Counted from the first letter of the stretch, positions 1 to 25,674 are shown. The stretch: DNA of 32,000 bases from Acaryochloris thomasi RCC1774 (GCF_003231495.1 NZ_PQWO01000003.1:30001-62000), one strand, 5' to 3'. Numbers and translations: made by a program. Notes: generated from the sequence alone by a model not told the origin.

Positions 1-1
1 T

Positions 2-1828
2 CTAGCACCGAAGGCAGAGGTACAGTTTGTGGGCTGGCAGCCAGGGCTATCGATTCCTGAATTAAAGCGGCAAATTTGTGATGCGATTTCAGACCCTCTA
101 GGCTGGGATATCTTGTTTTTTGCGGGCCACAGCAATGAAACAAACTTGACGGGAGGGGAACTTGCGATCGCACCCAACACCCTGATCACGATTAAGGAAA
201 TTGCCCCCCACTTAAAGCAACTGCAGGAAAAAGGGCTGCAGCTTGCTATTTTCAATTCATGCAGTGGTTTGAGCATTGCGATCTCGCTGATTGACTTAGG
301 CCTTAGTCAGGTTGCTGTGATGCGAGAGCCGATTCACAATCGGGTGGCACAGGTTTTTCTAGGCCGGTTCCTTAAGCATCTGAACAGTTATCAAGATGCC
401 CATGATGCGCTATGTTCTGCGGTGGTGGGTCTGCAGCACGAAGAGAACCTTTCTTATCCATCGGCACACTTAATTCCTTCGTTCTTTCGCCACCCAGAGT
501 CCAAGCCTTTTCGGCTACAGCCGATGGGGATAAGACAGTACATTCGACCTTGGCTACCCACGCGTCGAGAAGCTGTTACCTTGGCCATCCTCATTGTGTT
601 GAGCTTATGGCCTTCACTGCAACGAACCTTGTTAGACCAGCGCATTCTGGCCCAGTCCGTTTATCGGATGCTCACAGATCAGATACCGGCTCAAACGACG
701 CCACCGCTGACACTTGTACAAATTGATGATGCTTCTATTCAAAAGGCAGGCATCCGGGATCCAAAGCCGATGGATCGGGCTTATCTAGCTAAGCTGGTGG
801 ATCGATTGGTCGCGCATAAAAGCCAGGTTATTGGAATTGATTATCTATTGGATCGTCAGCAGCCTCAATCGGATCCACTTTTAGCGTCTGCAGTTCGGTC
901 TGCGGTTGCCCAACAAAATACTTGGCTCGTTTTTGCCTCAACAATACAACCCAATGGTTTAGAAATCGGGGTTAATCCGAAGACCGAGATTGCATCACCG
1001 ACTTGGAGCCTGCAAGCACACATACATGGTCAACCCACTCATATCGAGTTGCCTAGGGATGATTGCCGTCAAGCCTGTCCGTTCGCATATCTCATTGCGA
1101 TGTTGACGGCATATCAAGAGAATGGAACGGGTCTAGTGGGGCCTAGTCTAGAGAATAAGAAAAAGTTAAAATCGCATTTTCTCAATGATGCTCAGCAACT
1201 CTCAGAGCCAAAGCTTGACTTTATTCAGAAGCAACAACAAGCTTGGCTTTCACTTGGTTCTTACTATTTAAAACAGCAGTGGCTGGACCCAATTCTAGAT
1301 TTTTCGATACCACCAGAGCAGGCCTACCAGAGTATTCCAGCTTGGCAACTGCTAGCGACGAAGCAGGAAGAGAACTTGTCTTCAGTAGTAATCGTGGCTC
1401 CTGGCGGGTATAAAGAGGCTGGAGTCAATCAGTCTGATAACTTTGCAATACCTTTGGCTCTGCAGTTTTGGAGAGCATCTTTATCTGAGAATGATGGGAA
1501 TTTGGACAGAGCGGTTTTTACGGGCGGGGAGGCACATGCCTATATGGTGCATCATCTTCTGCAGAAACGCTTGGTGATTCCGATTCCAAATTTATGGATG
1601 GTTTTGCTGATGTCGTTTTTGGGAAAGGTAATCAGCTTAAGATGGGGTTATTCGCGACCTATTAAGTGGTGGCAAATACTTGGGGTGGGAACGGGTACAA
1701 CAGGTATTTATAGCCTGATTAGTTTACAGGGATATCTTTCAGCATCGGTTTTGTTTCCGGTTTTACTGCCGTCAATGACGGTTTTACTTTATCTTTTACC
1801 GCTTAGGGGTAGGCGTAATCATGGATAA
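2..1828 (+). CDS. CHAT-CHASE2 membrane protein, 5'-truncated by the window edge. A caspase-like CHAT protease C-terminal half is fused to a periplasmic CHASE2 sensor and 4 TM helices.
   Basis: The frame is open from nt 2 with no stop before the listed GTG at 29. A CHAT-type His/Cys dyad context is present (ILFFAGHS...LAIFNSCSG). It is followed by a TM helix (AVTLAILIVLSLWPSL), CHASE2-like sequence (LVQIDDASIQKAGIRDPKPMDRAYLAKLVDRL...VIGIDYLLDRQ), three C-terminal TM helices and a positively charged tail (RGRRNHG). Confidence 0.8.
   Translation, partial: LAPKAEVQFVGWQPGLSIPELKRQICDAISDPLGWDILFFAGHSNETNLTGGELAIAPNTLITIKEIAPHLKQLQEKGLQLAIFNSCSGLSIAISLIDLGLSQVAVMREPIHNRVAQVFLGRFLKHLNSYQDAHDALCSAVVGLQHEENLSYPSAHLIPSFFRHPESKPFRLQPMGIRQYIRPWLPTRREAVTLAILIVLSLWPSLQRTLLDQRILAQSVYRMLTDQIPAQTTPPLTLVQIDDASIQKAGIRDPKPMDRAYLAKLVDRLVAHKSQVIGIDYLLDRQQPQSDPLLASAVRSAVAQQNTWLVFASTIQPNGLEIGVNPKTEIASPTWSLQAHIHGQPTHIELPRDDCRQACPFAYLIAMLTAYQENGTGLVGPSLENKKKLKSHFLNDAQQLSEPKLDFIQKQQQAWLSLGSYYLKQQWLDPILDFSIPPEQAYQSIPAWQLLATKQEENLSSVVIVAPGGYKEAGVNQSDNFAIPLALQFWRASLSENDGNLDRAVFTGGEAHAYMVHHLLQKRLVIPIPNLWMVLLMSFLGKVISLRWGYSRPIKWWQILGVGTGTTGIYSLISLQGYLSASVLFPVLLPSMTVLLYLLPLRGRRNHG
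164..171. repeat. HIP1 octamer palindrome GCGATCGC
   Basis: Exact match read in the sequence. It is the only copy in the first 9760 nt. Confidence 0.95.
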
Positions 1829-2567
1829 GAATCGTGGGCTTTTGCTGGCTTTATTATTAGTCGTAGGGGGTGCTGAGCTTGGAGCTGCTCAACCAAAGAA
1901 AGAGGACTCTAACTCGAAGCCAAGACCAGTTAAGGTCCAGAATCAGAAGTCTTCCAGCAAGTCTCGCTCATTAATTAAGGGCATTATTCACGTTATTTTT
2001 GGGCCTTTGAAGAAAAAACCCAAGTTGGGTTCGCGAAGCAATCTCTGCGCTATCACACCTGGCCGGTTAGGGGAAACTGACACGATTTGGAGCGATCGAC
2101 CTATCTTTTCATGGCGTGGCAAAGCTAAAAAACTCCAGCTTTTGGATGAAGAGACAGGAGAACTGCTATGGCAGCGAACTTTATCCGGTGAGGAGCAAAG
2201 TGTTGCCTATGATGGTCCAGCGTTGAATCCAGGACAGGTTTATGAGTGGCGGATTTCTAATGGGGGAACTCAGAGATCGACGTTTGAAGTGATGTCGGCA
2301 GAAAAACGAGCGAAGGTTATTGCAGACCTAAGAAATCTAAATAATCCTGAAGAGGTTGCAAGCCTAACGCCTGAGGTGAGATTGGCGGTGTCGCAATCGC
2401 AATATTTTGGAGAGCAGAGATTGTGGTCAGATGCTTTACAGTCTCTGTATGGGGTACAGGAATCTACAGATGAATTGCAGGCAACATTGGATAGAGTATT
2501 GGGTAAGGTTTGTGGGGTTGCAGGTAATGAGAGACTGGCAGAGGACGAGACAATTGCAATGCCTTGA
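1821..2567 (+). CDS. DUF928-like secreted protein
   Basis: The ATG at 1821 overlaps the upstream stop (ATGGATAA, 8-nt overlap). A signal peptide is present (MDKNRGLLLALLLVVGGAELGAA). The motif order resembles cyanobacterial DUF928 as I remember it: C-AITP, then RPIFSWRG (compare PTFFWYVP), then KLQLLDEETGELLWQ, then LNPGQVYEWRI, then C-terminal QRLWSDALQSLY. Confidence 0.7.
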   Translation: MDKNRGLLLALLLVVGGAELGAAQPKKEDSNSKPRPVKVQNQKSSSKSRSLIKGIIHVIFGPLKKKPKLGSRSNLCAITPGRLGETDTIWSDRPIFSWRGKAKKLQLLDEETGELLWQRTLSGEEQSVAYDGPALNPGQVYEWRISNGGTQRSTFEVMSAEKRAKVIADLRNLNNPEEVASLTPEVRLAVSQSQYFGEQRLWSDALQSLYGVQESTDELQATLDRVLGKVCGVAGNERLAEDETIAMP

Positions 2568-2668
2568 GGTGACACAACTAAGTACTTTCACTCATTAGTC
2601 TCTGCAGGCAGAGGGAAATATCACAAACTAACTCTCCCTTCGTTCACGTTGCGAAGAGATAAGTAAGG

Positions 2669-5107
2669 TCAAGATGGCTGACAGTTAGCAGGCAAACCTA
2701 CGATCGCAGTTGGGGGTGTTTTGGATTCGGCAGTGAGCATAAGTTGGCCTTCAGAGTTGGTCTTCCAGCCTTGAGCCTCAATAATTTGAGGGGATGTTGG
2801 AGCTGAAGCTATTGAAATAGTCGGAGATTCCAAGGCAGATGATTGGATAATTGAGGTTGCCTGCGGGTTATGAACAACCCAGTTTGTCAGCACAGATTCG
2901 TTGTTGAGATCTTGGGCAGGATTTGTTGGTAAACCACCACGCCCTGTAATGATCAATTCACTGAGTTCACTAGCTACAACACCACCATTGGGTGCACAGC
3001 CTTGGGCAACAAGTTGCGAAGCATCAACAACATTGACGGGCAAGTCGATTAATCCATCACTAGGATCCGTCTCAGGGGTCTGAAATATGACTGTGCCACT
3101 GAGAGTTGGTCCACCAAGTTGAGAGAAGGCTGTCACGTCGCTGGTTGATAGTAAAGCTGGATCAGCAGGAATATTCGCGTTCTCAAAGTCGGCCAAGGTG
3201 CGTGGTGTTAAGCCAAAGATACCTTGAGCTGTCAGTTCGACCAGTCCTCCCGCCCCCTCCGTAGCATTGGCAGTGATGTCGCTATTATTCTGGGCAAAGA
3301 TCACATCACTGTTAAGTATGATATTTCCACCAGTGGCCGCTTCTGCAGCATTCGTTGTAATTGCACTGTTGTCGAGCAAGAAAATACTGCTCGCTTTAAG
3401 CTTAATATTACCTTCAGCAGAATTTGTAGTCGCACTTAAAGATCCAAGATCGGCAAGACGAATAGTCTCAGCAGTTACGACCAGTGAACCCGCCGGGCCG
3501 CTACCAGTTGAACTACTACTAACTTGGGCACCTTGCTCCAAACTAAAATCACTCGTGCTTATTGATAAATTTCCAGCCCCAAGAAGACTCCCACTTTCAG
3601 CACTTAAAGTACTTTCAGGATCTTGCAGCGCTACAGACTCAGAAGCAGCAATATCAATACTTCCAGCACGCCCTTGACTACCATAAGTAGATGCAACTGA
3701 AATATTCCCTCCGCCCTGAATAGAGAGCCTTTTCGTACTCACATTTATATCACCACCGTTTCCAGTAGTCCCTAGTCCAGTAGTTGCAGAAAATAAAGTA
3801 CTAGAAACTGCTTGGCCATTAGCGGCAACACCCTGACCAATAATATTTATAGACTCAGAAGCATTGATAGTCAATTCTCCCGCATTCCCTATCGCTCCAT
3901 CCGTAACCGTACTATTTACTTGTGCTCCGTCAAGTAACACTAGCCTTCTCGTACTTAGTTTAATATCACCAGCTTTTTTACCTCTTGAGAATGATGTCAA
4001 TGAACTAAAAGCACCATCTCCACGAATTTCTATGAGTTCTGAAGCCTTGACATTTAAATCCCCTGAAGATCCTAGACCATTACTACTACTATCAATAAAA
4101 GAAGCATTACTAAGAATCAATCTTTTCGTGTCAATATTAATATCTCCAGCTATACCATTTTCACCTAGATTAATAGAATTAATTGAACTAAAATTCCTAA
4201 CGACAAGAGACTCAGTAGCTACTATATCTAAATCTTCTCCAGGCATATCGCCAAAGTTTAGTGCAGCCAGTGCAGAGTTATTATCAAAAGAAATCCTCCT
4301 TCCATACAACCGAATAGGGCCATTAATAAACCCAGAAGTATTAATAGCAGAACCATTCGAGAAAGAAATATCTTCAAGTAAATTATTATCAGAAAAGTCC
4401 AGTGACGGACTATCTCCCGAAAGATCCAAGCCAACCACAGTTGGACCTGAAACACTTCCTATCTCAACGCTACGTGATGGAACAGAAAGAACAGCATTTT
4501 GAAAATGCACTCCGTTCCCTAAGACAAGGAAAGAATCACCCACCTGAAAGTCAAAAAAAGGATTACCAGAATCTTTCAAGATTTGAATATTTTTTGAACT
4601 CCTGCCAATATACAAACCGACAGGGAGTCTCATAGTCAACGTTAGCGGCTTTGAAATATCAGTATCAAAGAAACTTCCATCTTCAAAGTCAAGCCGATTA
4701 GCAGTAGATAGAAGCAAGGAACCAGAAACATCTATCTGAGCACCGTCTCCAAGTACAATTCCATTGGGATTGAGCAAGAAAAAATTCGCTCTTACATTAA
4801 CTAGACCCTCAATTATAGATGGCGAAGAGCCCGTTACTCTTCCAATGATATTTTCAACATTCCTATTTCTAAACACGACAGATTTACCTGGAGGTACAGA
4901 AAATTTTTTAAAACTATGAAAAAGATTTTGACCACCGATTAGAGTGCCGCCGGTAATAGTAAAATCATCCGATCCCGTGTCGGAAACAACTGTTCGAACA
5001 GGCAATGTTGTATCACCAAAGACTTGTGCACAAGTCATTTCGGCCAAAGATACATCGAACAAAATAACAAGGTACAATGCAAAAAAAGCTTTCCAAAAAT
5101 CAAACAT
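2669..5107 (-). CDS. Filamentous-haemagglutinin-like exoprotein: an N-terminal two-partner-secretion (TPS / haemagglutination activity) domain followed by a beta-helix repeat region.
   Basis: TPS-domain hallmarks follow the signal peptide: GQNLFHSFKKFSV, VVFRN, IIGRVTG, FLLNPNGIVLG. The rest is long, G/S/N/I-rich and repetitive (ASELIEIRG, ASESINIIG, ASESVAL). I chose the ATG at 5107; the ORF track starts three codons earlier at a TTG (5116). Confidence 0.9.
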   Translation of the reverse strand: MFDFWKAFFALYLVILFDVSLAEMTCAQVFGDTTLPVRTVVSDTGSDDFTITGGTLIGGQNLFHSFKKFSVPPGKSVVFRNRNVENIIGRVTGSSPSIIEGLVNVRANFFLLNPNGIVLGDGAQIDVSGSLLLSTANRLDFEDGSFFDTDISKPLTLTMRLPVGLYIGRSSKNIQILKDSGNPFFDFQVGDSFLVLGNGVHFQNAVLSVPSRSVEIGSVSGPTVVGLDLSGDSPSLDFSDNNLLEDISFSNGSAINTSGFINGPIRLYGRRISFDNNSALAALNFGDMPGEDLDIVATESLVVRNFSSINSINLGENGIAGDINIDTKRLILSNASFIDSSSNGLGSSGDLNVKASELIEIRGDGAFSSLTSFSRGKKAGDIKLSTRRLVLLDGAQVNSTVTDGAIGNAGELTINASESINIIGQGVAANGQAVSSTLFSATTGLGTTGNGGDINVSTKRLSIQGGGNISVASTYGSQGRAGSIDIAASESVALQDPESTLSAESGSLLGAGNLSISTSDFSLEQGAQVSSSSTGSGPAGSLVVTAETIRLADLGSLSATTNSAEGNIKLKASSIFLLDNSAITTNAAEAATGGNIILNSDVIFAQNNSDITANATEGAGGLVELTAQGIFGLTPRTLADFENANIPADPALLSTSDVTAFSQLGGPTLSGTVIFQTPETDPSDGLIDLPVNVVDASQLVAQGCAPNGGVVASELSELIITGRGGLPTNPAQDLNNESVLTNWVVHNPQATSIIQSSALESPTISIASAPTSPQIIEAQGWKTNSEGQLMLTAESKTPPTAIVGLPANCQPS

Positions 5108-5259
5108 ATACAACAATATTCAACCTATAGAGAAAGCCAAAGACAAAGTCTACAGAGAAAGTACAGATCAAAGCGATCATACTTCAGATAGAAAATAAAT
5201 TCATCCGTGATGTCACAGACCAGATTAAGTAGGCAGTAAATTTTCGATAGATGTAAATC

Positions 5260-5271
5260 AGAACTAGTTCT
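5260..5271. promoter_or_regulatory. Perfect 12-bp palindrome AGAACTAGTTCT; candidate operator upstream of the TPS-exoprotein gene.
   Basis: Read directly from the sequence. It lies 153 nt upstream of the ATG at 5107, in the AT-rich intergenic region 5108-5405. Confidence 0.25.
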
Positions 5272-5405
5272 TTAAAAGCATGCCACTAAAATCCCTCATA
5301 AATTCTTATAGAATATTTCAGTCTGGAAAAACATAAAATATTTTTTCAAGAGACAGAAATATATATTGTCACAAACAACAATTAGAAGTCCAAAATCTCA
5401 CCTCA

Positions 5406-6056
5406 TCAATTTATTGGAGGACAATAAGCACACAATACTCCCCGAATAATCCAACGGCCATCTTTTATACCTGGAACAGAAGAATTACAGTTTACAAATC
5501 CTGGATCTGGCTCTTTTTCCTCACCAGGCAACTTGCATCTACTCGAGTCCTTATCAAATAAAGCCTTTCTACTCTCTTTTTCTTTTTCTTCTCTCTCTTC
5601 TCTCTCTGGCCAATCTGTCAGACAGTACGAAAAATATATTGCATCTAGCTCAAACCTTGCTTGTTCATCATTCAATTCTCCATTTTTGACCTTAAAAAAT
5701 ACCAAGTGAGATTCTGCTGTAGCTAACACAGCAGAATCATTATCTTTAGCCGCTACCTGCACTGCTTTCTCTAGATATTTTTTGGCAGTTTTGAGTTCAT
5801 TACACTGCAAATAATGCTCACCATACCTTAAATATATAGAGGGCTTAACACTTATTTTTGCAACTAGTTTACTATTTACATCTAAGAGATTCTTCAGCTC
5901 TGTTTTTTTTCTGCAAGAATCCAAAAGCTGATCATCACCGACTGAGGTGCTTTCAGATATTTGCGCCTTAGATTCTGACATATAGATAAGTGAGGAACTC
6001 ACTGAGACTAACAATGAAAGACAAGCAAATCTTGACAAAAAACTTTTTTTAGTCAT
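5406..6056 (-). CDS. Hypothetical secreted Cys-rich protein (216 aa) with an E/R/K-rich linker; no family recognised.
   Basis: The internal ATG at 6056 gives a good signal peptide (MTKKSFLSRFACLSLLVSVSSSLIYMSESKA). The 29-codon upstream extension in the ORF track has no signal features. The mature part has several Cys residues, including a C-terminal LCAYCPP, and a possible single TPR-like helix pair (AKKYLEKAVQVAAKDND). The gene is very AT-rich. Confidence 0.55.
   Translation of the reverse strand: MTKKSFLSRFACLSLLVSVSSSLIYMSESKAQISESTSVGDDQLLDSCRKKTELKNLLDVNSKLVAKISVKPSIYLRYGEHYLQCNELKTAKKYLEKAVQVAAKDNDSAVLATAESHLVFFKVKNGELNDEQARFELDAIYFSYCLTDWPEREEREEKEKESRKALFDKDSSRCKLPGEEKEPDPGFVNCNSSVPGIKDGRWIIRGVLCAYCPPIN
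5573..5607. repeat. 35-nt uninterrupted polypyrimidine (C/T) tract on the + strand
   Basis: Counted directly: ctctctttt ctttttctt ctctctcttc tctctct. On the minus strand it encodes the REEREEKEKE linker of the 216-aa protein. Confidence 0.9.
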
Positions 6057-6297
6057 TTGATTTAATTTTCCTTTAGGATAGAACACAAGAATATCTACTC
6101 TCTTTATGCTATTGCAAATCCAAGTTTTTTTTAAGCAGGACAAGAAAATATTGGATTTAAATACCTAGAGAAATACATATGATAGCCTGAGAAACAAGAC
6201 AAGAATTTATCGCAAAAATACAAAAATCATCATTCATTTCCCCAGTGAAACTTACTAATAAAGGCCATTCACCCTTATCAATAATACTAAAAAGAAT

Positions 6298-6318
6298 ATA
6301 GTGAATTAAATTCACTAT
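6298..6318 (-). terminator. Candidate intrinsic terminator of the TPR-CHAT gene: a 21-bp perfect palindrome followed by a U-tract.
   Basis: ATAGTGAATT-A-AATTCACTAT has 10-bp arms. It starts 14 nt after the stop codon at 6332-6334. On the minus strand it is followed by ATTCTTTTTAGTATTATT. The stem is AT-rich and therefore weak. Confidence 0.4.
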
Positions 6319-6331
6319 CCTAATATTCAAT

Positions 6332-8926
6332 TCATTGCCAACTCCCTAACAAAATAAAGGGACTCCAATAATATGGATTTCCATTATCTTCTCCTTGTTT
6401 TAATATCGAAATCTTCGCTTGTCTAAGTGCCTCTGCAGTTGTAGTAAAGTCCTGTGCTAAATTTTGATAAAATCCACGCATCAAGACAGTTGTAGCCTGA
6501 TCATTTACCTGCCACAAGGTAGCTATCGTACTTCGCGTTCCTGATCTCATAGCAATTCCAGCCAAGCCTAACGCAGCCATTTCATCTCCCACAGCTGTTT
6601 CACAGGCACTCAAAACGAGAAGCTCAACCCCCCCCCTCTGCAATTCATTTGTTTGCAGTATTCCTCTTAACTGATTCGCATTAATTCGCCCCTCCCAAGT
6701 CAACAAAAATGTCTCATCTAACCGAGAACTAAACTGCCCATGAGTTGCCAAGTGAACTACGGGGAAAAACTCTTTATCTAAAGTTGATTGCAGTCTCAAC
6801 TGAGTAAAAGTCTCATTTAGCAACGAACGGCCTTTAGACTGCCGTTCAACACTTTCTATCTCTGATGGCACATGCACTAATGCACTAAACCCATCCTGAG
6901 GCTCAGAAAGCCCCGCAATCAAAACCTTCGGGCGACTCGACAACAAAGACTTCGGCTCAATCAACTGCAGCCCTGGCGTTAAAGCAGTCGCATACTTCTC
7001 AACCAAGTACTCCAACCCATCATGCAACGCCGCCATCGGAATATTCCGCAAAACCCCATCCTGCACAAACACCAGCGTCTCCACATCACTCACAGCCAAA
7101 TCCTTAGCCACCGGACGCAACAACCAGTCATAAATCTGCTGCGCCAACGGTATCACCCTCGGACTATTCGGCTGTCCCAACGCCAACCGAAACCGATCCA
7201 CCGTACGCTCCACCAAAGCCTGCGGCACATCAGTCGAGAAAAGCTTCAACCCCTCCCCCGGCAAACTCACAATCACCGCCAACCGATCCGGCAAAATAAT
7301 CGGATACACCACCGCCGCCTGCGGATCAATCTCATCAATCAACACCGGGTTCGCATCCAAACAAGCTTCCCGAAAGAAATTATCCAGCTCCGCCAACTGC
7401 AGCGACTCAATCGTTAACCGCGCCACCTCCAGATTCTTTGTACTCGGCTGCTCCGTCTCCGCATCTAACAGCAGCGAAACCAACTGCCGATGGATCGGTT
7501 CCACACTATCCCGAAACGTAAACTGAACCTCAGGGTTGATCGCCACCAAATCTCGGCGCAAAGACTGCAGCGTTTCCACCGCCCCAGAATAAGACGCGAT
7601 TGCCCCTTGCCGATCACCCTTGACCTTCAGTAAGCGCCCCAACTGCCACTGCCAACGAAACGCACCCTCTGGAATATTTTTTGACAGCACTAACGCCCGC
7701 CGCGTCAGCTTCTCCGCCGTTGCCCACTGCTGCTCCTGCTCATAAAGCGACCCCAAAGCCCCCACCACATAGGATTCCGTCTGCGAATCTCCTAACCTCT
7801 GCGCCTGCTGTCGAGCCCTAACCAAAAGCTCAGCAATGTGCCACGCATTAGGAGCAGTCACAGGACTCAACCGCCGCAGCTTCATCAGACTGTCAGTCAA
7901 ATTGAGATAGGCATAAACTGTAGAACGGCTACTGGGCTGTTGAGACAGCCCTTGCTCAATCTGCGGCCAGCCATCTTGAGCGGCAGACCACTGTTGCTCA
8001 TCAATCTGCAAACTCAACTGATTAAGCTGCACCTGAATCGGCACCAAACCCGCCCCTGACGCTGCAGATTGATACTGCTCTTGAGCCTGTTCAGAATTTC
8101 CCAATGCCCTCAGCGTATTGCCAAGGCTCAGCTGAGCAGCCTGACTTTCTTGCAATAGCTGAAGCTGACGCGCCATTTCTAGACTCTTTTGCAGAACCTC
8201 TTTTGACTGCTCAAGCTCTCCTCCAATTCGCAGCGCATCACCAAAGCTCCGCAAAGCCACAACCTGATCCCGCGAAGGTGCAGCCTCTGATAACGTCGCC
8301 GTAATCTCAGCCAGACTTGCGATAGCTCTCCGGTATAGCCCCAAAGACTGCAGCGCCTGCGCTTGATTAATCAGACTTCGGGTCACGCCTCCAGCATTCT
8401 TTATCTGAGCAAAAGCTGACTCAGCCTGCTTCCAAGTGGCCAGTGCCTCCTGCGCTTTGCCCTGCGAGAGCTGCAACCGCCCTTGAATGTTCAGTGCCTG
8501 CGCAAGAGTCGGCAATAAAGACGTATCGGGTTCAAGCCCATCCGCCTTCAGCAAATTGACACTCATCGCAATAGCATGATTCGCCTGAGGCCACTGCCCC
8601 AACTGCTCATAGACCAGCGATAAATTACTGAGCGTCACAGCCTGAGAGACGTGATCGCCTTTTGCCTTATGCGAGTCGACAGCCTGCTCCAAGACAGAAG
8701 CAGCCTCAGCAAATTTTTTACGTTCAAACAGGTCTTTCCCCTGCTGATCCAAGTCATTAAACTGAACCACTAAATTAGATAGCTTTAGTTCAGTCTTAGC
8801 CAAAACGGGAACGGCTAAACAGACTGGAACAGCACCCCACAAACCAGCCACAGCAAAGCCAAAACATAGAGATGTACGCGACAGACAAAATCGCCGTCCC
8901 TGATTATAAAAGTAAATATTACTCAC
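6332..8926 (-). CDS. TPR-repeat CHAT-domain (caspase-like) protease with an N-terminal export signal or membrane anchor.
   Basis: C-terminal CHAT motifs are present: VHLATHGQF (His) and ELLVLSACETAVGD (Cys codon 6602-6604), plus TIATLWQVND. The N-terminal roughly 450 aa are Q/L/A-rich TPR-like repeats (LSNLSLVYEQLGQWPQA, ALNIQGRLQLSQGKAQEA). The N-terminus is MSNIYFYNQGRRFCLSRTSLCFGFAVAGLWGAVPVCLAVPVLA. The start is GTG at 8926, and the first in-frame ATG is more than 100 codons in. Confidence 0.9.
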   Translation of the reverse strand: MSNIYFYNQGRRFCLSRTSLCFGFAVAGLWGAVPVCLAVPVLAKTELKLSNLVVQFNDLDQQGKDLFERKKFAEAASVLEQAVDSHKAKGDHVSQAVTLSNLSLVYEQLGQWPQANHAIAMSVNLLKADGLEPDTSLLPTLAQALNIQGRLQLSQGKAQEALATWKQAESAFAQIKNAGGVTRSLINQAQALQSLGLYRRAIASLAEITATLSEAAPSRDQVVALRSFGDALRIGGELEQSKEVLQKSLEMARQLQLLQESQAAQLSLGNTLRALGNSEQAQEQYQSAASGAGLVPIQVQLNQLSLQIDEQQWSAAQDGWPQIEQGLSQQPSSRSTVYAYLNLTDSLMKLRRLSPVTAPNAWHIAELLVRARQQAQRLGDSQTESYVVGALGSLYEQEQQWATAEKLTRRALVLSKNIPEGAFRWQWQLGRLLKVKGDRQGAIASYSGAVETLQSLRRDLVAINPEVQFTFRDSVEPIHRQLVSLLLDAETEQPSTKNLEVARLTIESLQLAELDNFFREACLDANPVLIDEIDPQAAVVYPIILPDRLAVIVSLPGEGLKLFSTDVPQALVERTVDRFRLALGQPNSPRVIPLAQQIYDWLLRPVAKDLAVSDVETLVFVQDGVLRNIPMAALHDGLEYLVEKYATALTPGLQLIEPKSLLSSRPKVLIAGLSEPQDGFSALVHVPSEIESVERQSKGRSLLNETFTQLRLQSTLDKEFFPVVHLATHGQFSSRLDETFLLTWEGRINANQLRGILQTNELQRGGVELLVLSACETAVGDEMAALGLAGIAMRSGTRSTIATLWQVNDQATTVLMRGFYQNLAQDFTTTAEALRQAKISILKQGEDNGNPYYWSPFILLGSWQ
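6628..6636 (-). repeat. G9 homopolymer on the coding strand (C9 on +) inside the TPR-CHAT gene
   Basis: Counted directly (agctcaaCCCCCCCCCtctg). It encodes R-G-G of NELQRGGVELLVLSAC and ends 8 codons upstream of the catalytic Cys codon. Confidence 0.95.
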
Positions 8927-9209
8927 CCCACAAGCAACTGACTTAATCAGCTATCAATATGGTCTTTATCATGCAACTAATTTGCATCATGGAGCAAAGG
9001 AGTCAAAGAATCTTCATCAATCAATAATATTTCTACACTGTAAATCAAGACTTCATTCTTAACCCAGCATCCAGCAAAGGTTTATCAAATTGTTTTAGCC
9101 TCTCCACTATATAAGGATAGATATTGAGCACCATCTTTTATTTGCCGAGAGAAATACTTTAGGCACCCGACACCTTCTGCACAAGCTTTTCTAGTGAACG
9201 TGCACTCAG

Positions 9210-9449
9210 TCATGGCGTACTAGGGAAAAGTCTTGCACCTGAGTTGTCTTTTGCGTCAACGACAGGCGTTACTTGACTTCGCCCCCAGACAGTTGCAACA
9301 ACATTTCCAAGTGCAACTAGAACAGCACCGATGAGACCGATCTGCTCCTTTGTCAGTGGGAGACCAAAAGTAGCTGCCAGCATGAGAGCGACTTCAACGA
9401 GTGCAATCAAAAAATTGATAACCGCTAATGGTTCACGACTTCCATTCAT
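9210..9449 (-). CDS. Small two-TM membrane protein (79 aa), function unknown.
   Basis: ATG at 9449; the track starts two codons earlier at TTG 9455. There are two hydrophobic helices (LAVINFLIALVEVALMLAATFGL and IGLIGAVLVALGNVVATVW) joined by PLTKEQ, followed by a polar tail. It sits alone between 283-nt and 403-nt non-coding stretches. Confidence 0.45.
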   Translation of the reverse strand: MNGSREPLAVINFLIALVEVALMLAATFGLPLTKEQIGLIGAVLVALGNVVATVWGRSQVTPVVDAKDNSGARLFPSTP

Positions 9450-9760
9450 GTTCAATACCCTTTTAACAACAAGAAACTGAAGGCAAGAAAGTATTCCTAT
9501 ACCTCACTCAGCACATTGACCAAGCTGATAGATAAAGTGAGCCTTTTCCTGAGTTATGGTGCTATATATCTTGCTATTTTCTACCTATGCGATTATGTAT
9601 TCAGGCACTATTAGTATTAGCTGATAAAAGCTATCTAGAATTCGGTGAAAGACTCTATACAGAGAGATTCCATAGAGCACGAGTAATGTCACCTCCGTGT
9701 TCACACTTAGCGTATCTGCAGTCTATGGAAGCACATCAATCGAATTCTCCGAGAGCACGT

Positions 9761-9858: not shown

Positions 9859-12800
9859 TTAGAGATACTGCTCAGAAATCCTCTCAGAGAAAGCTGCCTT
9901 AATGACAGCCGTAGCGGCTTCGCTATCTACTGGCTTAGAAAAGAAATAGCCTTGCCCTGACTCGCAACCCAAAGTTCGAAGTTTTTCAAGTTGTGCCTCG
10001 GTTTCAATGCCTTCTGCCACGACATTCATATCTAAGCTATGAGCTAGGGCCAAAATAGTCTGGACCACGGCCACACCATCAGCAGCTTGTCCCTCAATAC
10101 GGTTGACGAAGGCACGGTCAATTTTCAAAGTATCTATCGGGAATTCATGAAGTCGGCTCAAAGACGAATACCCTGTCCCAAAGTCATCAATACAGAGCCG
10201 AACACCCTGGTCTCGCAGCTCAAAAAGCTGTGCCGATGGACTAGAAGTGGCTGACAACAGACAGCTTTCCGTGACCTCTAGCTTGAGGGTTGCAGGGTCA
10301 ATGTGATACTCAGTCAGCAGCTTCAGCAACTGCTCCGTGAAGTCTGGCTGCTGAAGCTGCAAAGCAGACAGATTGACATTCATAACAAGGGACGCAGCCT
10401 GAGGGAACTGATGCTGCCACTGCTGGATTTGTCGGCAAGCTGTCTCCAATACCCACCAGCCTAAAAGACCAATTAATCCTGTTTCTTCAGCAATGGGAAT
10501 AAACTTGACGGGTGAGATCCAGCCACGCTGGGGATGATGCCATCGCAGCAGCGCTTCAAATCCAAGGAGTTGCCCCGTTTGCAGGGCAATAATCGGCTGG
10601 TAGTTGAGCTGAAAATCGACGGGAGAAGGCGATTCACCCAGCCAACTAGCCACGTCAATAGCGTGTCGCAATTCGTTCTCAAGCTGCAGACGCTCCGTCG
10701 CACTGCTTTGCATGATCGGGTCGAACATCGCGTAACACCCCCGTCCCTCAGCCTTGGCACGATAAAGAGCGGTATCGGCATCCCGCAGCATATCCTCAGG
10801 GCTTTGATAGTGACTGCCAGTACTTCGAGCAATGCCGATCGAGGTTCCGGTAAACACTTCGTATTGGTGAAGCTGAAAGGGCTGAATAAATTGGCGCAGA
10901 ATTCGATCAGCCAAACCAATGATCTCCTTTGCAGAGGCATCTTCGATGAGTACCGCAAATTCGTCACCCCCCAGGCGCATAATACTGTCGGGATGGGGTA
11001 AACAGGCCTGCAGCCGCTCCGCAACCCGCTGGAGGAGTTGATCTCCGACAATATGCCCCAAGCTGTCATTAACCACCTTAAACTGATCGAGATCTAGAAA
11101 GAGAATTGCATACTGATAGTCTGGCACTTGTTGACTGAGCAGCAGATTTTCAGAAAGCCGCTCCATGAGGCAGGCTCGGTTTTTCAGCCCGGTGAGTAAG
11201 TCATGAAAGGCATCGTGAAGAAGCTGCTCGTGTACCTCCAGCAGATCGGCCTGAGATTGTTCGAGCTGTTTAGCATAATCTTGCGAAGCTTGATAAAGAC
11301 TGGCATTCTTTAGCGAAATGGCTGCTTGAGCACACAGCAACTTGAGCATTTCGAGCCGGTCCCCTCTGAAGGCGTGGGCTGCTAGATTATTCTCAAGGTA
11401 AAAAATTCCCACTAGCTTCCCCTGGGTCTGAATCGGTAGGCTCAGGACGGATGGGGGGCAGTGCTCAGCGATATAGGGATCGAGCGTAAAGCTGGTCAGT
11501 GCCGTGACGTTATCTAGAATTAACGGCTCTAAGGTCCGTTCAACATGGCGAATCACGGTTTCAGGGACGTCTGCACCAGAGATGGGCCGAGGGCGATGGT
11601 TGAGCAGCTTGCCGTCCCGGCAGCGCACGGCGAGGATCCACTGCTCGTGTTGCTCTGGTAGCAATAAGGCCCCCGCATCAGCCCCAGAGTTTTCGATCAC
11701 AATCTGCATCAACGTCGAGAGCAGGTGATCGAGATGCATCTCTTTTGAAACAGTCTGAGAAGCTTTGATCAGCGTACTTAAGTCAATGAGCGATGAAGTG
11801 GAGGTGCTGCTAGTGGTCAGAGTGCCAATCGATAAAGCAGTGATGGTTTCAGTGCTGTGCGAGCGTTCATGGGTTTGCTCCAGAATTGAGGCCAGCAGAG
11901 GGCGATATCGCTTTTCTAGATCTTCAACTTTAGCTGCAGCCCCCCAGTGCGCATAGGCGTAATAGGCATCAATCAGATAGGTCTTACCAATTTTCTCTTT
12001 GCCCCAGGCTAGATAGAAGCGGGCGGCCAGCTCATTGGCTAGGGCAACATCCTGAAGATAGCCGTGTTCGACTGCAGTTGCGATCGCAACATCATACCCC
12101 TCCATTGCCGCCATAGGTGCCCCTAGAACACGATGGCGCTCAGCACAGATTAGTTCGAGTCGATGCTGGTGGTTCTGGGGGGCAGAGTTAGCCCAGTGCT
12201 GCAGTTGCGTCTGACTGGCATCCACCTGAGCGAGCAAATCAGTCTGGTCAGCCTCAGAAGCCTGCGGATAAACCGCCAACCGCACCAGCGCACTGTAGAA
12301 GTGAAAAATAGGCACATCGGGCATTCCCGTCACGCAACCCACAGACGGCTCTGCAGCTATGACCGAGCGGAGCGCCTCATCCTGCTGTTCAAAGAGGTAA
12401 GCCAGCAACAGCTTCTTGAAGTTGAGATAGAACAACGCCAGCACATCATTAGCAGCCAGATGCTGCGGCTGCATCACTTGTTCGCTATAGACCGCGCCCA
12501 CCAAAACCCAAGGCTCTTCAGTAGGCTCCGTCAGGTGCAGCACCATCTGCCACAGCATGTCGCAGTAACAAAGAATAGTTCGCTGCTGTAAGTAGCCGAC
12601 CGTCTCGCTGCTCGCTCGAATTTCCGGCTCTAGCTGACTCAGCTCTTGACCAGCGAAAAAAGCATTCTCGACATAGTGATGGATGGTATAGGCAGCATAT
12701 TCTACATCCCCAGCCTCCAGGGATAGCTGATGAGCCTGATGCATCGGGACCAGCGTATCCCTTAGTGGATCACGAAAGTGGCGAATAAACAGATTAAGTA

Positions 12801-15800
12801 GCGCTAAGATCTTAGGCTGCAGTTCTTGGTTGGGATATCGCGCCAGCAGGTCCTGGGATAACTGTCCAAATCGATAGCCAGCCTCTATTTCCCCCGTCAA
12901 CCCACAGAGGATAACGCCGTAGGTCACGTACCCAAAGGCAGAGAGAGATGAGTTGCCGTGACGGAGCGTCAGCGCCACCAACCGAAAAACAATCAGCGGC
13001 ACTAGGGGCGAACCTGCCAAGTAAGAAATCGGCCAGATTCTAGCCAGAATCAACATCTTGGCAAACTGTACCGGATCCTTCATTGGCGGCAGATCCAGCA
13101 GTTCTTCACGGCTCTGATTAGCCAGTAACATCGCCGTTTCCTGCAGGCCCTGCTGCACGGCCGCAGCATCAAGCGGCTCCGGAAAGTGGACGTCTAGCTG
13201 AGCAAGATAGTCCAAGGCAATCTCAATGGCCTCCACCAGCTGGCTTTGGGCCGCGCGACTGAGGATCCGACTTTCTTGAACTTTGAGGGTATCGAGGTGG
13301 GTAACCGCATGACTTAACACCTGTTCAGCAAAGGTATCCATGTCGTCATAGCGACCGCAAAGATAGGCAGTCTCTACGGCCTCGGTATAGAGGGCCAGCG
13401 TCAGCTGATACTGCTGCTGCCAGCCTCGATCTGGCAGTAGGTTGATGCCGGCTTGAAAATAATCTAATGCTGCAGTGTGGGCCGTTGAATGTTTGGCTTT
13501 GCGTCCTGCAGCTAAATTAAGCTGAGCGAGCTGGAGCTGTTCGTAGGTCTCAATGATCAGCGTGTGGCCCTGGTTAAGCTGGTTTGCGATCGCAAATAAA
13601 GCCTCGTCTGTTCCCTCGCGATCTCGATAGGCTAGCAGAAGCCGCCCAATGGAGAGATGGGTACTGGCCCGCTGCAGTCGAGGGATCAGAGTATAGGCAG
13701 CCTGCTGTACGCGGTCATGCAAAAACCGGTAGTGAGGGGCTTCCTGTTCAGATAAAAACTCCGTTTCTGCCCGCAGATCGTTGGCCCCTTGTTCAGGCTG
13801 ATAAAACTTGTAGGTTTCACGCTGGGGCAAAATTAGCCCCTCCTGTAGCGCAGGCCACAAAGCGGCCGCCGTTTCAGCCTGCGATTGCTCACACACCGTC
13901 GCCAGCGTCGCCAAATCAAATTGACCTCCAATACAGGCTGCTAGCTGCAGGGTTCCGCGCGTCATTTCAGGTAACTTCTGTATTTGTTGGGCCACGAAGG
14001 TGACCACATCATCCGTGAGCGCCAGCGCCCTCACCTGCGTTAAATCACATTGCCAGGATCTAGCCGCCTGACTATAGGCCACCAACCCTTCTTTGTGCAG
14101 CATCTTCAGAAACTGCGTACTAAAGAACGGATTGCCCTGCGTCTTTTGAAAAATCAGCTGCGTTAGCGGACGCGCCACATCCCCTGGGCACTTCAACGTG
14201 TCTGCCACCAACTGATTGAGATCGTAGAGCATCAGAGGCGTCAGCGTCACCACCTGAGACCGAACCCCCACTTGCTCTAGCATGCGCAGCGTCGCCAGCA
14301 GCGGATGGGCCGGAGACACCTCATTATCTCTGTAGGCACCCATCAGCAGTAAATGCCCTTGATGTTCGGTAGACATCAATACCTGAATCAGATTTAGAGA
14401 GGCCAGATCGGCCCACTGTAGATCATCCAAAAACAGCACCAGAGGATGCTCCTCAGTGGCAAAGATCTGCACAAAGTGCTGAAATAGCCGGTTGAATCGG
14501 TTTTGGGCTGCGGTCCCAGATAACTCTGAGACCGGGGGCTGAGCGCCCAGAATCTGCTCCAGCTCAGGAATTACGTCAATGATTACCTGGGCATCTTGCC
14601 CCAAAACGTCCAGAATATCGGTCCGCCAACGCTGCACGGCATCAGGGCTGAGGGTCAGAATCTGCCCCATCAAATCCCGCAGCGCATCCACAAAAGCAGA
14701 GAAGGGGACGCTGCGCTGAAACTGATCAAATTTACCCTTCACAAAGTAGCCCTGACAGCGCACAATCGGCTTGTGAACTTCAGAGATAACAGCGGTTTTG
14801 CCAATCCCAGAAAAGCCCGAGATCAGGACCAGCTCTTGGCCGCCATGCGCGACGCGCTCAAAGGCATCTAGCAGCATTCTCACTTCATGGTCTCGACCAT
14901 AGAGTCGCTCAGGAATCACAAAGCGATCGCATAAATCGCCTTGCCCTAAGGGGAACATCACCCTCGCTCCCATCGCGACCTGGTCCACACAGCGCTGCAG
15001 ATCCTGCTTCAATCCCAAGGCACTCTGGTAACGATCTTCAGGATTTTTTGCCATCAGCTTGGCCACAATCGCCGACAGCATCGGCGGCACATCAGCATTG
15101 CGCTCCAGCACCGCCGGAACAGATTGGGCAATGTGGCGATGAATCCATTCAATCGGCTGTTCGGCCTCAAACGGCAGTTGGCCGGTCAACAGCTCAAAAA
15201 ACGTGACCCCAAGGGAATAGAAGTCAGTACGGTAGTCAATCCCGCGATTCATTCGCCCCGTCTGCTCTGGGGAAATATAGGCTAGCGTTCCTTCTAGAAC
15301 CCCTAAGTTTTGAATCTCCTGCGTTTCTCGAGGCAGCACCGAGGCCATGCTGAAGTCCGTCAGCTTTACCTCGAGGGTCTCAGGGTGAATCAGAATATTG
15401 TGGGGCTTGAGGTCTTTATGAATAATGCGTTGCGCGTGTAACCCCTCTAGGCTTTGGGTAATACTCAGGGCGATGTCTAAAAATTGGGTCAGGGGCAGGA
15501 TGGGGCAGGTCTCTAAATCCTGTACATATTGCTTCAGCGAAAGACCACCAAAGTCTTCCATCACTAGCGCAAAGCCGTTATCACAGGGTTCCAAGCCATA
15601 GAACTGCACAATTCCAGGCAGTGAGAGTGGCCGTGTAATCGCGTACTGATTGCGAAATTGAACCAGCTCAGCACCACTGGGATAGACTTTTTTCAATTTT
15701 TTGATGACCACAGGGGTCTGATCGAGCTGACGCTGCCCCCGAAAGACAAGGGTTCTCGACCCATCATAGAGGGTCTCCAGGATCCGATAGCCTTTGAGCA

Positions 15801-15846
15801 CAAAGGTAGTGGATGACGAGTTTTGTTGAGTATTGAGAGCGTTCAA
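9859..15846 (-). CDS. Giant multidomain signalling protein: Ser/Thr kinase, P-loop NTPase (AAA_16/STAND-like), helical/TPR-like region, GAF, GGDEF, EAL.
   Basis: Kinase motifs: VVIKKL Lys, HKDLKPHN (HKD at 15412-15420), DFS, SPEQ. Walker A is GFSGIGKT (14794-14817) and Walker B is LVLFLDDLQWAD. A GAF-like segment is present (ADAGALLLPE...GIFYLEN). GGDEF is intact (RLGGDEFA, 10957-10971). EAL is intact (FEALLRW, EAL at 10549-10557; EVTES; DDFGTGYSSL; KIDRAFV; EGIETE; QGYFFSKP). The start is TTG at 15846, or GTG at 15801. The first in-frame ATG lies after the kinase Lys. Confidence 0.95.
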   Translation of the reverse strand: MNALNTQQNSSSTTFVLKGYRILETLYDGSRTLVFRGQRQLDQTPVVIKKLKKVYPSGAELVQFRNQYAITRPLSLPGIVQFYGLEPCDNGFALVMEDFGGLSLKQYVQDLETCPILPLTQFLDIALSITQSLEGLHAQRIIHKDLKPHNILIHPETLEVKLTDFSMASVLPRETQEIQNLGVLEGTLAYISPEQTGRMNRGIDYRTDFYSLGVTFFELLTGQLPFEAEQPIEWIHRHIAQSVPAVLERNADVPPMLSAIVAKLMAKNPEDRYQSALGLKQDLQRCVDQVAMGARVMFPLGQGDLCDRFVIPERLYGRDHEVRMLLDAFERVAHGGQELVLISGFSGIGKTAVISEVHKPIVRCQGYFVKGKFDQFQRSVPFSAFVDALRDLMGQILTLSPDAVQRWRTDILDVLGQDAQVIIDVIPELEQILGAQPPVSELSGTAAQNRFNRLFQHFVQIFATEEHPLVLFLDDLQWADLASLNLIQVLMSTEHQGHLLLMGAYRDNEVSPAHPLLATLRMLEQVGVRSQVVTLTPLMLYDLNQLVADTLKCPGDVARPLTQLIFQKTQGNPFFSTQFLKMLHKEGLVAYSQAARSWQCDLTQVRALALTDDVVTFVAQQIQKLPEMTRGTLQLAACIGGQFDLATLATVCEQSQAETAAALWPALQEGLILPQRETYKFYQPEQGANDLRAETEFLSEQEAPHYRFLHDRVQQAAYTLIPRLQRASTHLSIGRLLLAYRDREGTDEALFAIANQLNQGHTLIIETYEQLQLAQLNLAAGRKAKHSTAHTAALDYFQAGINLLPDRGWQQQYQLTLALYTEAVETAYLCGRYDDMDTFAEQVLSHAVTHLDTLKVQESRILSRAAQSQLVEAIEIALDYLAQLDVHFPEPLDAAAVQQGLQETAMLLANQSREELLDLPPMKDPVQFAKMLILARIWPISYLAGSPLVPLIVFRLVALTLRHGNSSLSAFGYVTYGVILCGLTGEIEAGYRFGQLSQDLLARYPNQELQPKILALLNLFIRHFRDPLRDTLVPMHQAHQLSLEAGDVEYAAYTIHHYVENAFFAGQELSQLEPEIRASSETVGYLQQRTILCYCDMLWQMVLHLTEPTEEPWVLVGAVYSEQVMQPQHLAANDVLALFYLNFKKLLLAYLFEQQDEALRSVIAAEPSVGCVTGMPDVPIFHFYSALVRLAVYPQASEADQTDLLAQVDASQTQLQHWANSAPQNHQHRLELICAERHRVLGAPMAAMEGYDVAIATAVEHGYLQDVALANELAARFYLAWGKEKIGKTYLIDAYYAYAHWGAAAKVEDLEKRYRPLLASILEQTHERSHSTETITALSIGTLTTSSTSTSSLIDLSTLIKASQTVSKEMHLDHLLSTLMQIVIENSGADAGALLLPEQHEQWILAVRCRDGKLLNHRPRPISGADVPETVIRHVERTLEPLILDNVTALTSFTLDPYIAEHCPPSVLSLPIQTQGKLVGIFYLENNLAAHAFRGDRLEMLKLLCAQAAISLKNASLYQASQDYAKQLEQSQADLLEVHEQLLHDAFHDLLTGLKNRACLMERLSENLLLSQQVPDYQYAILFLDLDQFKVVNDSLGHIVGDQLLQRVAERLQACLPHPDSIMRLGGDEFAVLIEDASAKEIIGLADRILRQFIQPFQLHQYEVFTGTSIGIARSTGSHYQSPEDMLRDADTALYRAKAEGRGCYAMFDPIMQSSATERLQLENELRHAIDVASWLGESPSPVDFQLNYQPIIALQTGQLLGFEALLRWHHPQRGWISPVKFIPIAEETGLIGLLGWWVLETACRQIQQWQHQFPQAASLVMNVNLSALQLQQPDFTEQLLKLLTEYHIDPATLKLEVTESCLLSATSSPSAQLFELRDQGVRLCIDDFGTGYSSLSRLHEFPIDTLKIDRAFVNRIEGQAADGVAVVQTILALAHSLDMNVVAEGIETEAQLEKLRTLGCESGQGYFFSKPVDSEAATAVIKAAFSERISEQYL
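12080..12087. repeat. HIP1 octamer palindrome GCGATCGC
   Basis: Exact match read in the sequence. Confidence 0.95.
13586..13593. repeat. HIP1 octamer palindrome GCGATCGC
   Basis: Exact match read in the sequence. Confidence 0.95.
14923..14930. repeat. HIP1 octamer palindrome GCGATCGC
   Basis: Exact match read in the sequence. Confidence 0.95.
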
Positions 15847-25644: not shown

Positions 25645-25674
25645 TAGACCTACCACCTGCGATTACGTGAACTT

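Follow-up and report, generated by a model that had tools for sequence, protein, structure and literature searches.

Convergent gene modules of a candidate trans-envelope sensor and protease guild in the cyanobacterium Acaryochloris thomasi RCC1774

The EACC2 systems described by Kaur et al. (2021, eLife; PMC8195603) join a constant N-terminal alpha+beta domain and a caspase to C-termini that vary, CHASE2 among them; DUF1822/TRADD-N proteins and extracytoplasmic function (ECF) sigma factors accompany them. The description is computational only; stimulus-induced autoproteolytic activation was proposed for the EACC2-caspase systems, and a neighbourhood that includes a TPR-caspase gene is listed as an 'EACC2-caspase' system in supplementary file 17 of that paper. 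DdvA, a solved example of a periplasmic TPR-CHAT protein with a His-Cys dyad, has been proposed to act in trans-envelope signalling (PMC11506125). CdrA, a TpsA adhesin of Pseudomonas aeruginosa, is thought to be hooked to its transporter by C-terminal cysteines (PMC11898600) and is released on cutting by the periplasmic cysteine protease LapG (PMC4694147; PMC5422565 section 9). In addition, a WD40 survey recorded one adjacency of CHASE2 and DUF928 in Nostoc punctiforme (PMC5587647). The region analysed here occupies positions 1-8926 of a 32,000-nucleotide stretch of Acaryochloris thomasi RCC1774 (order Acaryochloridales; NZ_PQWO01000003.1:30001-62000), the whole of which is referred to as the window. 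It carries genes for a CHAT-CHASE2 receptor-protease, a DUF928-like protein, a TpsA-type exoprotein and a TPR-CHAT protease, and is best explained as the junction of two convergent modules of one recurrent cyanobacterial envelope guild, a real association that goes beyond chance.

Five open reading frames (ORFs) were found in this region, at 2..1828 and 1821..2567 on the plus strand and at 2669..5116, 5406..6143 and 6332..8926 on the minus strand, and all are present where a first-pass annotation had placed them. That annotation had joined them into a single five-gene cluster. Two plus-strand genes converge on three minus-strand genes, however, and the region therefore consists of two convergent modules rather than one unit; one five-gene operon is ruled out because the genes lie on opposite strands. 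Module A (1-2567, plus strand) comprises the CHAT-CHASE2 gene, present as a window-edge fragment, and the gene for the DUF928-like protein. Module B (2669-8926, minus strand) comprises the genes for the predicted exported TPR-CHAT, an orphan and the TpsA exoprotein. Profile hidden Markov model (HMM) searches confirmed the domain assignments for CHAT-CHASE2, for two-partner secretion (TPS) and for TPR-CHAT, and that for DUF928 at the family level only. The expectation that every product is membrane-bound or exported also holds at a heuristic level, with CHAT predicted in the cytoplasm, CHASE2 in the periplasm, and the DUF928-like, TPS and TPR-CHAT proteins exported.

Only part of the first gene falls inside the window: positions 1..1828 (plus strand) hold the 3' 609 codons of C1752_01133 (100% protein match), whose product is 796 residues long in the genome. 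Pfam matches to CHASE2 (PF05226, 2.5e-18) and CHAT (PF12770, 2.2e-08) were obtained with the fragment, in which the codons of the catalytic His and Cys lie at 128-130 and 260-262, the CHASE2 domain spans approximately 584-1618 and C-terminal membrane helices are encoded. Residues H43 and C87 of the fragment are H231 and C275 of the full protein. In an alignment of 20 CHAT-CHASE2 sequences, both His231 (FAGHSNET) and Cys275 (FNSCSG) are invariant, and a stretch of some 115 N-terminal residues ahead of the CHAT domain is also conserved. Relatives at E <= 1e-10 number more than 2,600, and those that are named are all cyanobacterial.

In an AlphaFold model of the full receptor (mean predicted local distance difference test score, pLDDT, 79), residues 5-114 form a beta-meander plus helices and residues 118-351 an alpha/beta CHAT fold, followed by long membrane helices at 376-413, CHASE2 at 424-715 and three C-terminal helices at 718-790. 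The membrane helix after CHAT and the three C-terminal helices of the model agree with the four transmembrane segments initially assigned to this protein. A Foldseek search of the PDB with the model returned Csx29 as the top match (8eey_B, E = 4.6e-08), together with SAVED-CHAT, separase, the anti-sigma factor DdvA and caspases. On heuristic topology, CHAT-CHASE2 is taken as an inner-membrane receptor with its N-terminal alpha+beta domain and CHAT domain in the cytoplasm and its CHASE2 domain in the periplasm.

Module A is the end of a widespread cyanobacterial operon with the order DUF1822, DUF1822, CHAT-CHASE2, DUF928-like. In a census of one genome per species, relatives of CHAT-CHASE2 were found in 459 loci, of which 80 were taken with 10-kb flanks, plus the closest relative locus, L001. 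A DUF928-like gene stands at position +1 of CHAT-CHASE2 in 56/77 loci, and DUF1822-type genes at -1 in 35/76 and at -2 in 35/68; the downstream member of the DUF1822-type pair matches PF08852, and its upstream paralogue has no Pfam match. The order in L001 (76% and 62% identity) is DUF1822, DUF1822, CHAT-CHASE2, DUF928 and then a convergent TPS gene. The cluster extends past the window start on its left side. The protein C1752_01132 is a DUF1822 protein that is 81% identical to its L001 counterpart, and because its locus tag directly precedes C1752_01133 on the same contig, its gene adjoins the window on the left and belongs to the operon.

The DUF928-like gene (1821..2567, plus strand) encodes a putative secreted partner of 248 residues (C1752_01134, 100% identical protein). 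Its start overlaps the CHAT-CHASE2 stop by 8 nt (ATGGATAA), and the same gene pair overlaps by 8 nt in 27/65 cases and by 4 nt in another 9/65. This conserved overlap indicates translational coupling of the two genes. The protein begins with a signal-type N-terminus and continues with a disordered Lys/Ser/Pro-rich linker, an FN3/Ig-like beta-sandwich and a four-helix C-terminal part. Against PF06051 the window protein itself scores below threshold (E = 0.01, 16 bits, Pfam cut-off 26), so that its assignment to DUF928 stands at the family level: 35/57 orthologues match PF06051 at E <= 0.01 (best 3.2e-08), which makes the window protein a divergent DUF928, and it is annotated 'DUF928 domain-containing' in one source. 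A model built from a 5-sequence alignment (pLDDT 62 overall, 70-93 in the folded core) is confident only at residues 78-233, where a seven-stranded sandwich is followed by four helices. Fold searches with this model returned generic FN3/Ig modules, and the modelled fold is of the binding-module type, not of an enzyme type.

Canonical DUF928 genes (Pfam, E = 1e-43 to 1e-63) adjoin CHASE2-cyclase and CHASE2-PAS genes in the TPS-centred loci described below. DUF928 is thus found with CHASE2 sensors of other outputs, which makes DUF928-CHASE2 the constant pair, apparently a general one whatever the output domain. In L116:7106-9820, L119:12796-14742 and L100:2696-4762, where canonical DUF928 (~1e-60) lies beside CHASE2-adenylate/guanylate cyclase or CHASE2-PAS, TPS and TPR-CHAT genes occur in the same loci.

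The core of this arrangement corresponds to the EACC2-caspase neighbourhood, which has DUF1822 (TRADD-N plus TPR), an alpha+beta domain with caspase/CHAT, CHASE2 and transmembrane segments, a 'TM+beta_rich+TPRs' gene, which is the DUF928-like gene here, and a TPR-caspase. The neighbouring DUF1822 gene is present for the window (C1752_01132) as well as at -1 and -2 in the census; for the N-terminal 115 residues of CHAT-CHASE2, which are encoded outside the window and modelled as a beta-meander plus helices ahead of CHAT, the comparison with EACC2 is by description, not by profile. The cluster had been put forward as uncharacterised. Its core neighbourhood is in fact already listed computationally by Kaur et al. 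(2021), and what stands of that claim is that no functional characterisation was found.

A role in defence was proposed for EACC2-caspase in section 9 and supplementary file 17 of PMC8195603. If this locus is read in that way, as serving conflict or abortive infection, the receptor would sense an invader cue, which would lead to CHAT autoprocessing or to cleavage of TRADD-N/DUF1822 adaptors and hence to a transcriptional (ECF sigma) or suicidal response, with the exported proteases and the exoprotein as auxiliary sensors or effectors. Consistent with this, the CHAT fold kin Csx29, SAVED-CHAT and DdvA are all defence-linked, the neighbourhoods are rich in further proteases (S8 subtilase, C14 caspase), and a weak sigma-70/ECF-like gene occurs in 3 loci. 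However, the PADLOC defence models match no component, apart from a generic TPR match, and the ECF sigma gene reported for EACC2 systems is rarely adjacent in the loci studied here. The sensor domain and three partners are placed outside the cytoplasm, and canonical DUF928-CHASE2 also drives cyclase and PAS outputs, which is typical of environmental sensing. Moreover, the surroundings in the window are housekeeping genes (kaiABC, glgB, MTHFR) and not a defence island. Defence is in our view unlikely to be the function, though it is the alternative we take most seriously, and it would be compatible with the relay proposed below.

The weak sigma-like gene, which encodes 226 residues (TIGR02937 7.5e-08, below the cut-off) and has no counterpart in the window, may be the ECF sigma factor of Kaur et al. 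It lies near DUF1822 genes (L018:736-1413, also L016 and L059) and also matches a LuxR-type helix-turn-helix domain.

The TPR-CHAT gene of module B (6332..8926, minus strand) encodes 864 residues with Pfam matches to TPR and to CHAT (PF12770, 4.3e-58). A hydrophobic segment at residues 24-42 is followed by the TPR region and by the CHAT domain at residues 594-862 (approximately 6341-7147), in which the codons of the dyad lie at 6740-6742 (His729) and 6602-6604 (Cys775). Full-length comparison with 17 TPR-CHATs whose genes adjoin TPS genes gave identities of 33-51%, and H729 and C775 are invariant across the 18 sequences. Retention of the catalytic His and Cys, which had been noted for both CHAT domains of the region, thus extends to all the relatives aligned in each case. 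An export-type N-terminal segment, called by hydropathy, was found in 17/18 TPS-linked TPR-CHATs, 51/57 DUF928-like proteins and 5/7 TPS proteins, compared with 0/20 of the control CHAT-CHASE2 proteins; in a looser set, the CHAT neighbours in CHAT-CHASE2 loci, it was present in 46/73 at a stricter threshold. The body of TPR-CHAT is predicted from its sequence to be extracytoplasmic, whether the segment is a cleaved signal or a membrane anchor. An N-terminal arginine pair had been pointed out together with the hydrophobic segment; the segment recurs in 17/18 relatives, as above, and the arginine pair is not kept in them. Twin-arginine translocation of TPR-CHAT was rejected for this reason.

Like DdvA, then, TPR-CHAT is placed in the periplasm, and it is the CHAT fold of DdvA that was matched by the CHAT-CHASE2 model in Foldseek. 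DdvA carries a zinc anti-sigma domain in the cytoplasm and is paired with a cognate ECF sigma factor, whereas the hydrophobic segment of the window TPR-CHAT is preceded by only some 20 residues and its surroundings in the window contain no sigma gene. An identity as a DdvA-type anti-sigma factor was rejected, since TPR-CHAT lacks a cytoplasmic domain and the window a sigma gene. PDB searches with TPR-CHAT, by sequence and by profile, returned TPR proteins only, with no sequence-level match to DdvA even when the family profile was used. The TPR plus CHAT architecture and the His-Cys dyad are shared with Csx29 of the type III-E Craspase. Csx29, however, is cytoplasmic, Cas7-11-bound and RNA-activated, whereas the window TPR-CHAT has an export-type N-terminus, and no cas genes are present among the window ORFs.

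The exoprotein gene (2669..5116, minus strand) encodes 815 residues, with a signal peptide ending in TCA ahead of a Gln and a Gly-rich repeat region. Its TPS domain (residues 30-262, approximately 4331-5029) matches PF05860 at 2e-38 and TIGR01901 at 1.5e-18 and carries the NPNG motif as LLNPNGI in the family alignment; sequence matches in the PDB were to the secretion domains of HxuA, EtpA and HMW1. With a hydrophobic signal peptide followed by an NPNG-containing TPS domain, the protein has the features of a two-partner secretion substrate (TpsA), in agreement with its original assignment. It resembles the classical TPS proteins (FhaB/FhaC, HMW1, HxuA, EtpA) in these features and in its repetitive beta-helix-type passenger. 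It differs from them in having no adjacent TpsB and in ending with a conserved Cys-loop module that is specific to cyanobacteria. A third difference is the regular linkage to a CHAT protease, on which the TPS review and the papers found are silent.

The C-terminal module (2681..2998, minus strand), which the first-pass annotation had not pointed out, is bounded by C707 and C812 and contains a G-R-G-G-L-P motif at residue 725. These are the only cysteines of the mature window exoprotein, about 105 residues apart. Exactly two cysteines after residue 45 are found in 80/94 complete family members, and a Cys-motif-Cys arrangement in 63/94, with one Cys no more than 40 residues before G-[RQK]-G-G-[LIV]-P and the other in the last 25 residues. 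The two-Cys module recalls the 'cysteine hook' of CdrA, and it may serve as a loop for retention in the periplasm or as a site of cleavage.

The C-terminus is also the most conserved part of the exoprotein family in the alignment, which bears on whether the exoprotein could be a contact-dependent toxin, akin to those of contact-dependent growth inhibition (CDI), with its neighbours as immunity or processing factors. The exoprotein is a TpsA with an unrelated small ORF adjoining it, as such a system would have. However, its C-terminus is not polymorphic and has no toxin-domain match in Pfam. Moreover, the small ORF precedes the exoprotein gene, whereas a cdiI gene follows its toxin gene, and it has an export-type signal and is not conserved. 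With a conserved C-terminus and neither a toxin nor an immunity pair, a CDI toxin is disfavoured and seems highly improbable.

Evidence that the two modules belong together comes from both sides. In the CHAT-CHASE2 loci, a further CHAT protein, mostly a TPR-CHAT, stands at -1 in 22/76, at +3 in 13/67 and at +4 in 14/59, as against 0/38 at -6 and 3/45 at +6. An independent census was centred on full-length relatives of the window TPS protein. Of these 80 loci, 33 contain CHAT, 18 DUF928 and 19 CHASE2 proteins, the last divided into 9 with CHAT-CHASE2 and 10 with other outputs. By position, CHAT is found at +1 in 15/61 loci (ShlB in 9/61); at +2 CHAT occurs in 9/49 and DUF928 in 6/49; and at +3 DUF928 and CHASE2 proteins occur in 5/42 each. 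At the upstream positions -6 to -3 there are almost none of CHAT, ShlB, DUF928 or CHASE2, and nearly every upstream gene is unrelated. The convergent layout [DUF1822 > CHAT-CHASE2 > DUF928 >][< TPR-CHAT < TPS] recurs in L084, L140, L144 and L150, where TPS precedes TPR-CHAT, opposite to the order TPR-CHAT, orphan, TPS of the window. The window order, with TPR-CHAT before TPS, recurs in L018 and L119, and in L018 all four genes share a strand and overlap at their ends.

The joint occurrence of CHAT, CHASE2, DUF928 and haemagglutinin-like genes, from which the idea of a common system had started, is thus position-specific in two independent censuses. It is not limited to filamentous cyanobacteria as was first thought; Pleurocapsa PCC 7327 and Synechococcus PCC 7336 are unicellular hosts of CHAT-CHASE2 relatives, and A. 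thomasi RCC1774 is a cyanobacterium that we likewise take to be unicellular. Synteny was upheld for the module A operon and for the links of TPS with TPR-CHAT. It does not extend to the orphan, for which no homologue was found in any of the 160 fetched loci.

Several points weigh against this picture. TPS genes are found in only 7/82 CHAT-CHASE2 loci, and module B is therefore accessory rather than obligatory. The TPS-centred loci come from metagenomes and carry no taxonomic assignment; in both censuses the ORFs were called and clustered, and the family HMMs built, by ourselves, and position-specificity was gauged from how frequencies fall off away from the anchor gene, not by a formal genome-wide null model. 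A ShlB/FhaC-type gene, which had been considered as a regular member, is not one: no match to ShlB/FhaC, POTRA or Omp85 was obtained in any ORF of the 32-kb window, and a ShlB-type TpsB is nearby in only 14/80 TPS-centred loci and in 1/81 CHAT-CHASE2 loci. The cognate TpsB may be encoded elsewhere in the A. thomasi genome. The export calls follow a simple hydropathy rule, not a trained predictor, and the thylakoid lumen is also a possible destination. In L001, the gene beyond TPS (8996-11503, minus strand) is RPE65/carotenoid-oxygenase-like and not a TPR-CHAT. In the window itself, the orphan and two gaps of about 280 bp part TPS from TPR-CHAT, and together with a low-GC patch described below they make co-transcription of these two genes uncertain.

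Some of these points would fit independent neighbours, that is, a sensor module lying by chance next to a TPS adhesin and a TPR-CHAT, given that CHAT, TPR and TPS genes are numerous and clustered. The convergent arrangement with its 100-bp gap implies separate transcripts, and the 7/82 frequency of TPS, the low-GC patch and orphan (suggestive of recent rearrangement) and the lack of a TPR-CHAT at the equivalent place in L001 point the same way. Chance proximity does not readily account for the presence of CHASE2 in 19/80 and DUF928 in 18/80 TPS loci, concentrated at +2 to +4 with -6 to -3 nearly devoid, nor for the recurrence of the convergent layout in at least 4 unrelated contigs. We consider independence rather improbable.

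The best-supported description of the guild is a constant periplasmic DUF928 plus CHASE2, a variable cytoplasmic output, which in the window is the caspase-like CHAT, and an optional front end of TpsA filament and exported TPR-CHAT. The trans-envelope sensor/protease module suggested by the first-pass annotation remains the best reading, since the co-occurrence is position-specific and the topology holds heuristically. It needs amending to two convergent modules, with DUF1822 genes that had gone unseen and without the non-conserved orphan. We lean, at slightly better than an even chance, towards an outside-in, surface-to-cytoplasm proteolytic relay, all of whose binding and cleavage steps are inferred. 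In such a relay, a TpsB encoded elsewhere would thread the exoprotein to the cell surface, while its conserved C-terminal two-Cys loop would hold it in the periplasm. The exported (or membrane-anchored, periplasm-facing) TPR-CHAT would then cut the loop region of the exoprotein, or DUF928. DUF928, as a putative periplasmic co-sensor or ligand-presenting partner of CHASE2, would read the resulting periplasmic state together with it, and the cytoplasmic CHAT would be switched on, with the co-encoded DUF1822 (TRADD-N/TPR-like) proteins as its likely substrates.

The LapD-LapG/CdrA system offers a functional resemblance only, in that it too has a TpsA beta-helix exoprotein with C-terminal cysteines, a periplasmic cysteine protease and an inner-membrane receptor that governs it. 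The protease here is a CHAT protein of caspase fold, the receptor is based on CHASE2 and not on a cyclic di-GMP-binding GGDEF-EAL protein, and signalling probably runs outside-in. The precedent nevertheless raises the converse arrangement, an inside-out switch in which an intracellular cue would cause CHASE2-DUF928 to sequester or release TPR-CHAT, so that the Cys loop is clipped and the exoprotein shed. CdrA with LapG and LapD is a precedent for a TpsA adhesin (PMC5422565, PMC4694147, PMC11898600), and the conserved two-Cys C-terminal loop, the exported Cys protease whose gene neighbours that of the exoprotein and the GGDEF-EAL giant kinase gene adjacent in the window would all suit such a switch. 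However, the cytoplasmic modules on CHASE2 are of the output type (protease, cyclase) and not ligand receivers, no LapG-type protease or LapD-type GGDEF-EAL receptor was found by Pfam among the five genes, and CHASE2 is generally held to be an extracytoplasmic input domain (Zhulin et al. 2003, as cited in PMC8195603). An inside-out switch is accordingly quite unlikely.

The outside-in relay may be taken further, into a trans-envelope caspase relay. Here a surface perturbation (contact, damage or phage) would lead TPR-CHAT to clip the disulfide-held TpsA, DUF928-CHASE2 would read the product in the periplasm as a co-receptor, and the cytoplasmic protease would act on TRADD-N-like adaptors. This extended version is speculative, and we would give it only a small chance. 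If true, it would pair an extracellular initiator with an intracellular executioner, a logic analogous to death-receptor signalling, and the same TPS/TPR-CHAT/DUF928 front end could serve cyclase or PAS outputs as well.

Neither CHASE2 nor DUF928, both widespread domains, has a known ligand or function, and CHAT proteases, abundant in cyanobacteria, are hardly characterised beyond the CRISPR craspase, SAVED-CHAT and DdvA. The DUF928-CHASE2 pair, the linked exported CHAT and the two-Cys-tailed TpsA provide partners that can be tested, and possible substrates, for each of the four families. If the relay is true, it would give the first defined input for CHASE2 sensors and a new way in which intracellular caspase-like proteolysis is coupled to a surface protein of type Vb, with consequences in bloom- and mat-forming cyanobacteria for surface sensing, aggregation and programmed responses. 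The account in PMC8195603 mentions neither TPS exoproteins, nor TpsB, nor export of the TPR-caspase; the beta-rich partner is not named there as DUF928, and its pairing with CHASE2 sensors of other outputs is not noted. In the open-access literature, nothing relevant was found on CHAT proteases linked to TPS, FhaC or haemagglutinin in cyanobacteria, nor on DUF928-CHASE2 as a general pair; a literature search on DUF928 itself led to a single paper. The TPS/TpsB linkage, the family-wide export of TPR-CHAT, and the two-Cys tail with the general DUF928-CHASE2 pairing appear to be new here.

Between the TPS and TPR-CHAT genes lies the lineage-specific orphan (ORF 5406..6143, minus strand). Its start is most likely Met30, as an identical 216-residue representative exists, giving a coding region of 5406..6056. 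The Cys-rich protein with a signal that had been proposed is thus a real ORF with a signal-type N-terminus and about 7 cysteines in its mature part, but it is a singleton and not conserved. Pfam gave a single sub-threshold TPR match, and a search of 1.84 billion representatives returned only the self match and weak TPR-like repeat matches. The orphan was rejected as a component of the system because it is a singleton. The GC content falls to 0.28-0.40 at approximately 3900-6500, compared with 0.45-0.56 in the flanks, over a stretch that includes the 5' half of the TPS gene, the orphan and both adjoining gaps. In other loci, the TPS and TPR-CHAT genes abut or overlap. As the low-GC patch covers the orphan and the TPS/TPR-CHAT gap in a pair that is contiguous elsewhere, this suggests recent insertion or recombination between the two genes in the window.

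The neighbourhoods vary in other ways. In several Nostocales loci (L033:13456-21450, together with L026, L040, L053, L064 and L080) an extended array lies downstream of DUF928, with the order small TPR (~173 residues), CHAT-only (~480-530 residues), TPR-CHAT (~930 residues) and S8 subtilase (~710 residues). A C14 caspase plus DUF4384 protein is found in six loci, for example at L012:14542-16782. In Oscillatoriales (L042:13564-21799, L048, L066 and L025), RTX (HemolysinCabind) and FG-GAP exoproteins follow CHAT-CHASE2/DUF928 at the usual position of TPS, and such a secreted partner may substitute for TpsA in those loci. The RPE65-like protein of L001 matches PF03055 at 4e-19, spread over about 750 residues.

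A promoter and terminator scan gave counts at or below the shuffled expectation and was uninformative. Beyond the region, directly beside the TPR-CHAT gene, lies a gene (9859..15846, minus strand) for a 1995-residue Ser/Thr kinase-AAA16-GAF-GGDEF-EAL protein, which might connect the cluster to cyclic di-GMP. Comparable giant kinase-AAA16-GAF proteins with histidine-kinase outputs occur near CHAT-CHASE2 genes in L008, L011, L013 and L020. The remaining genes of the window are housekeeping genes, encoding MTHFR, an OmpR-type regulator, a Ser/Thr kinase, GlgB, KaiABC, IspF and a ROK protein. Among these, a complete kaiA-kaiB-kaiC circadian clock cluster, unrelated to the envelope genes, lies at 24730-27586.

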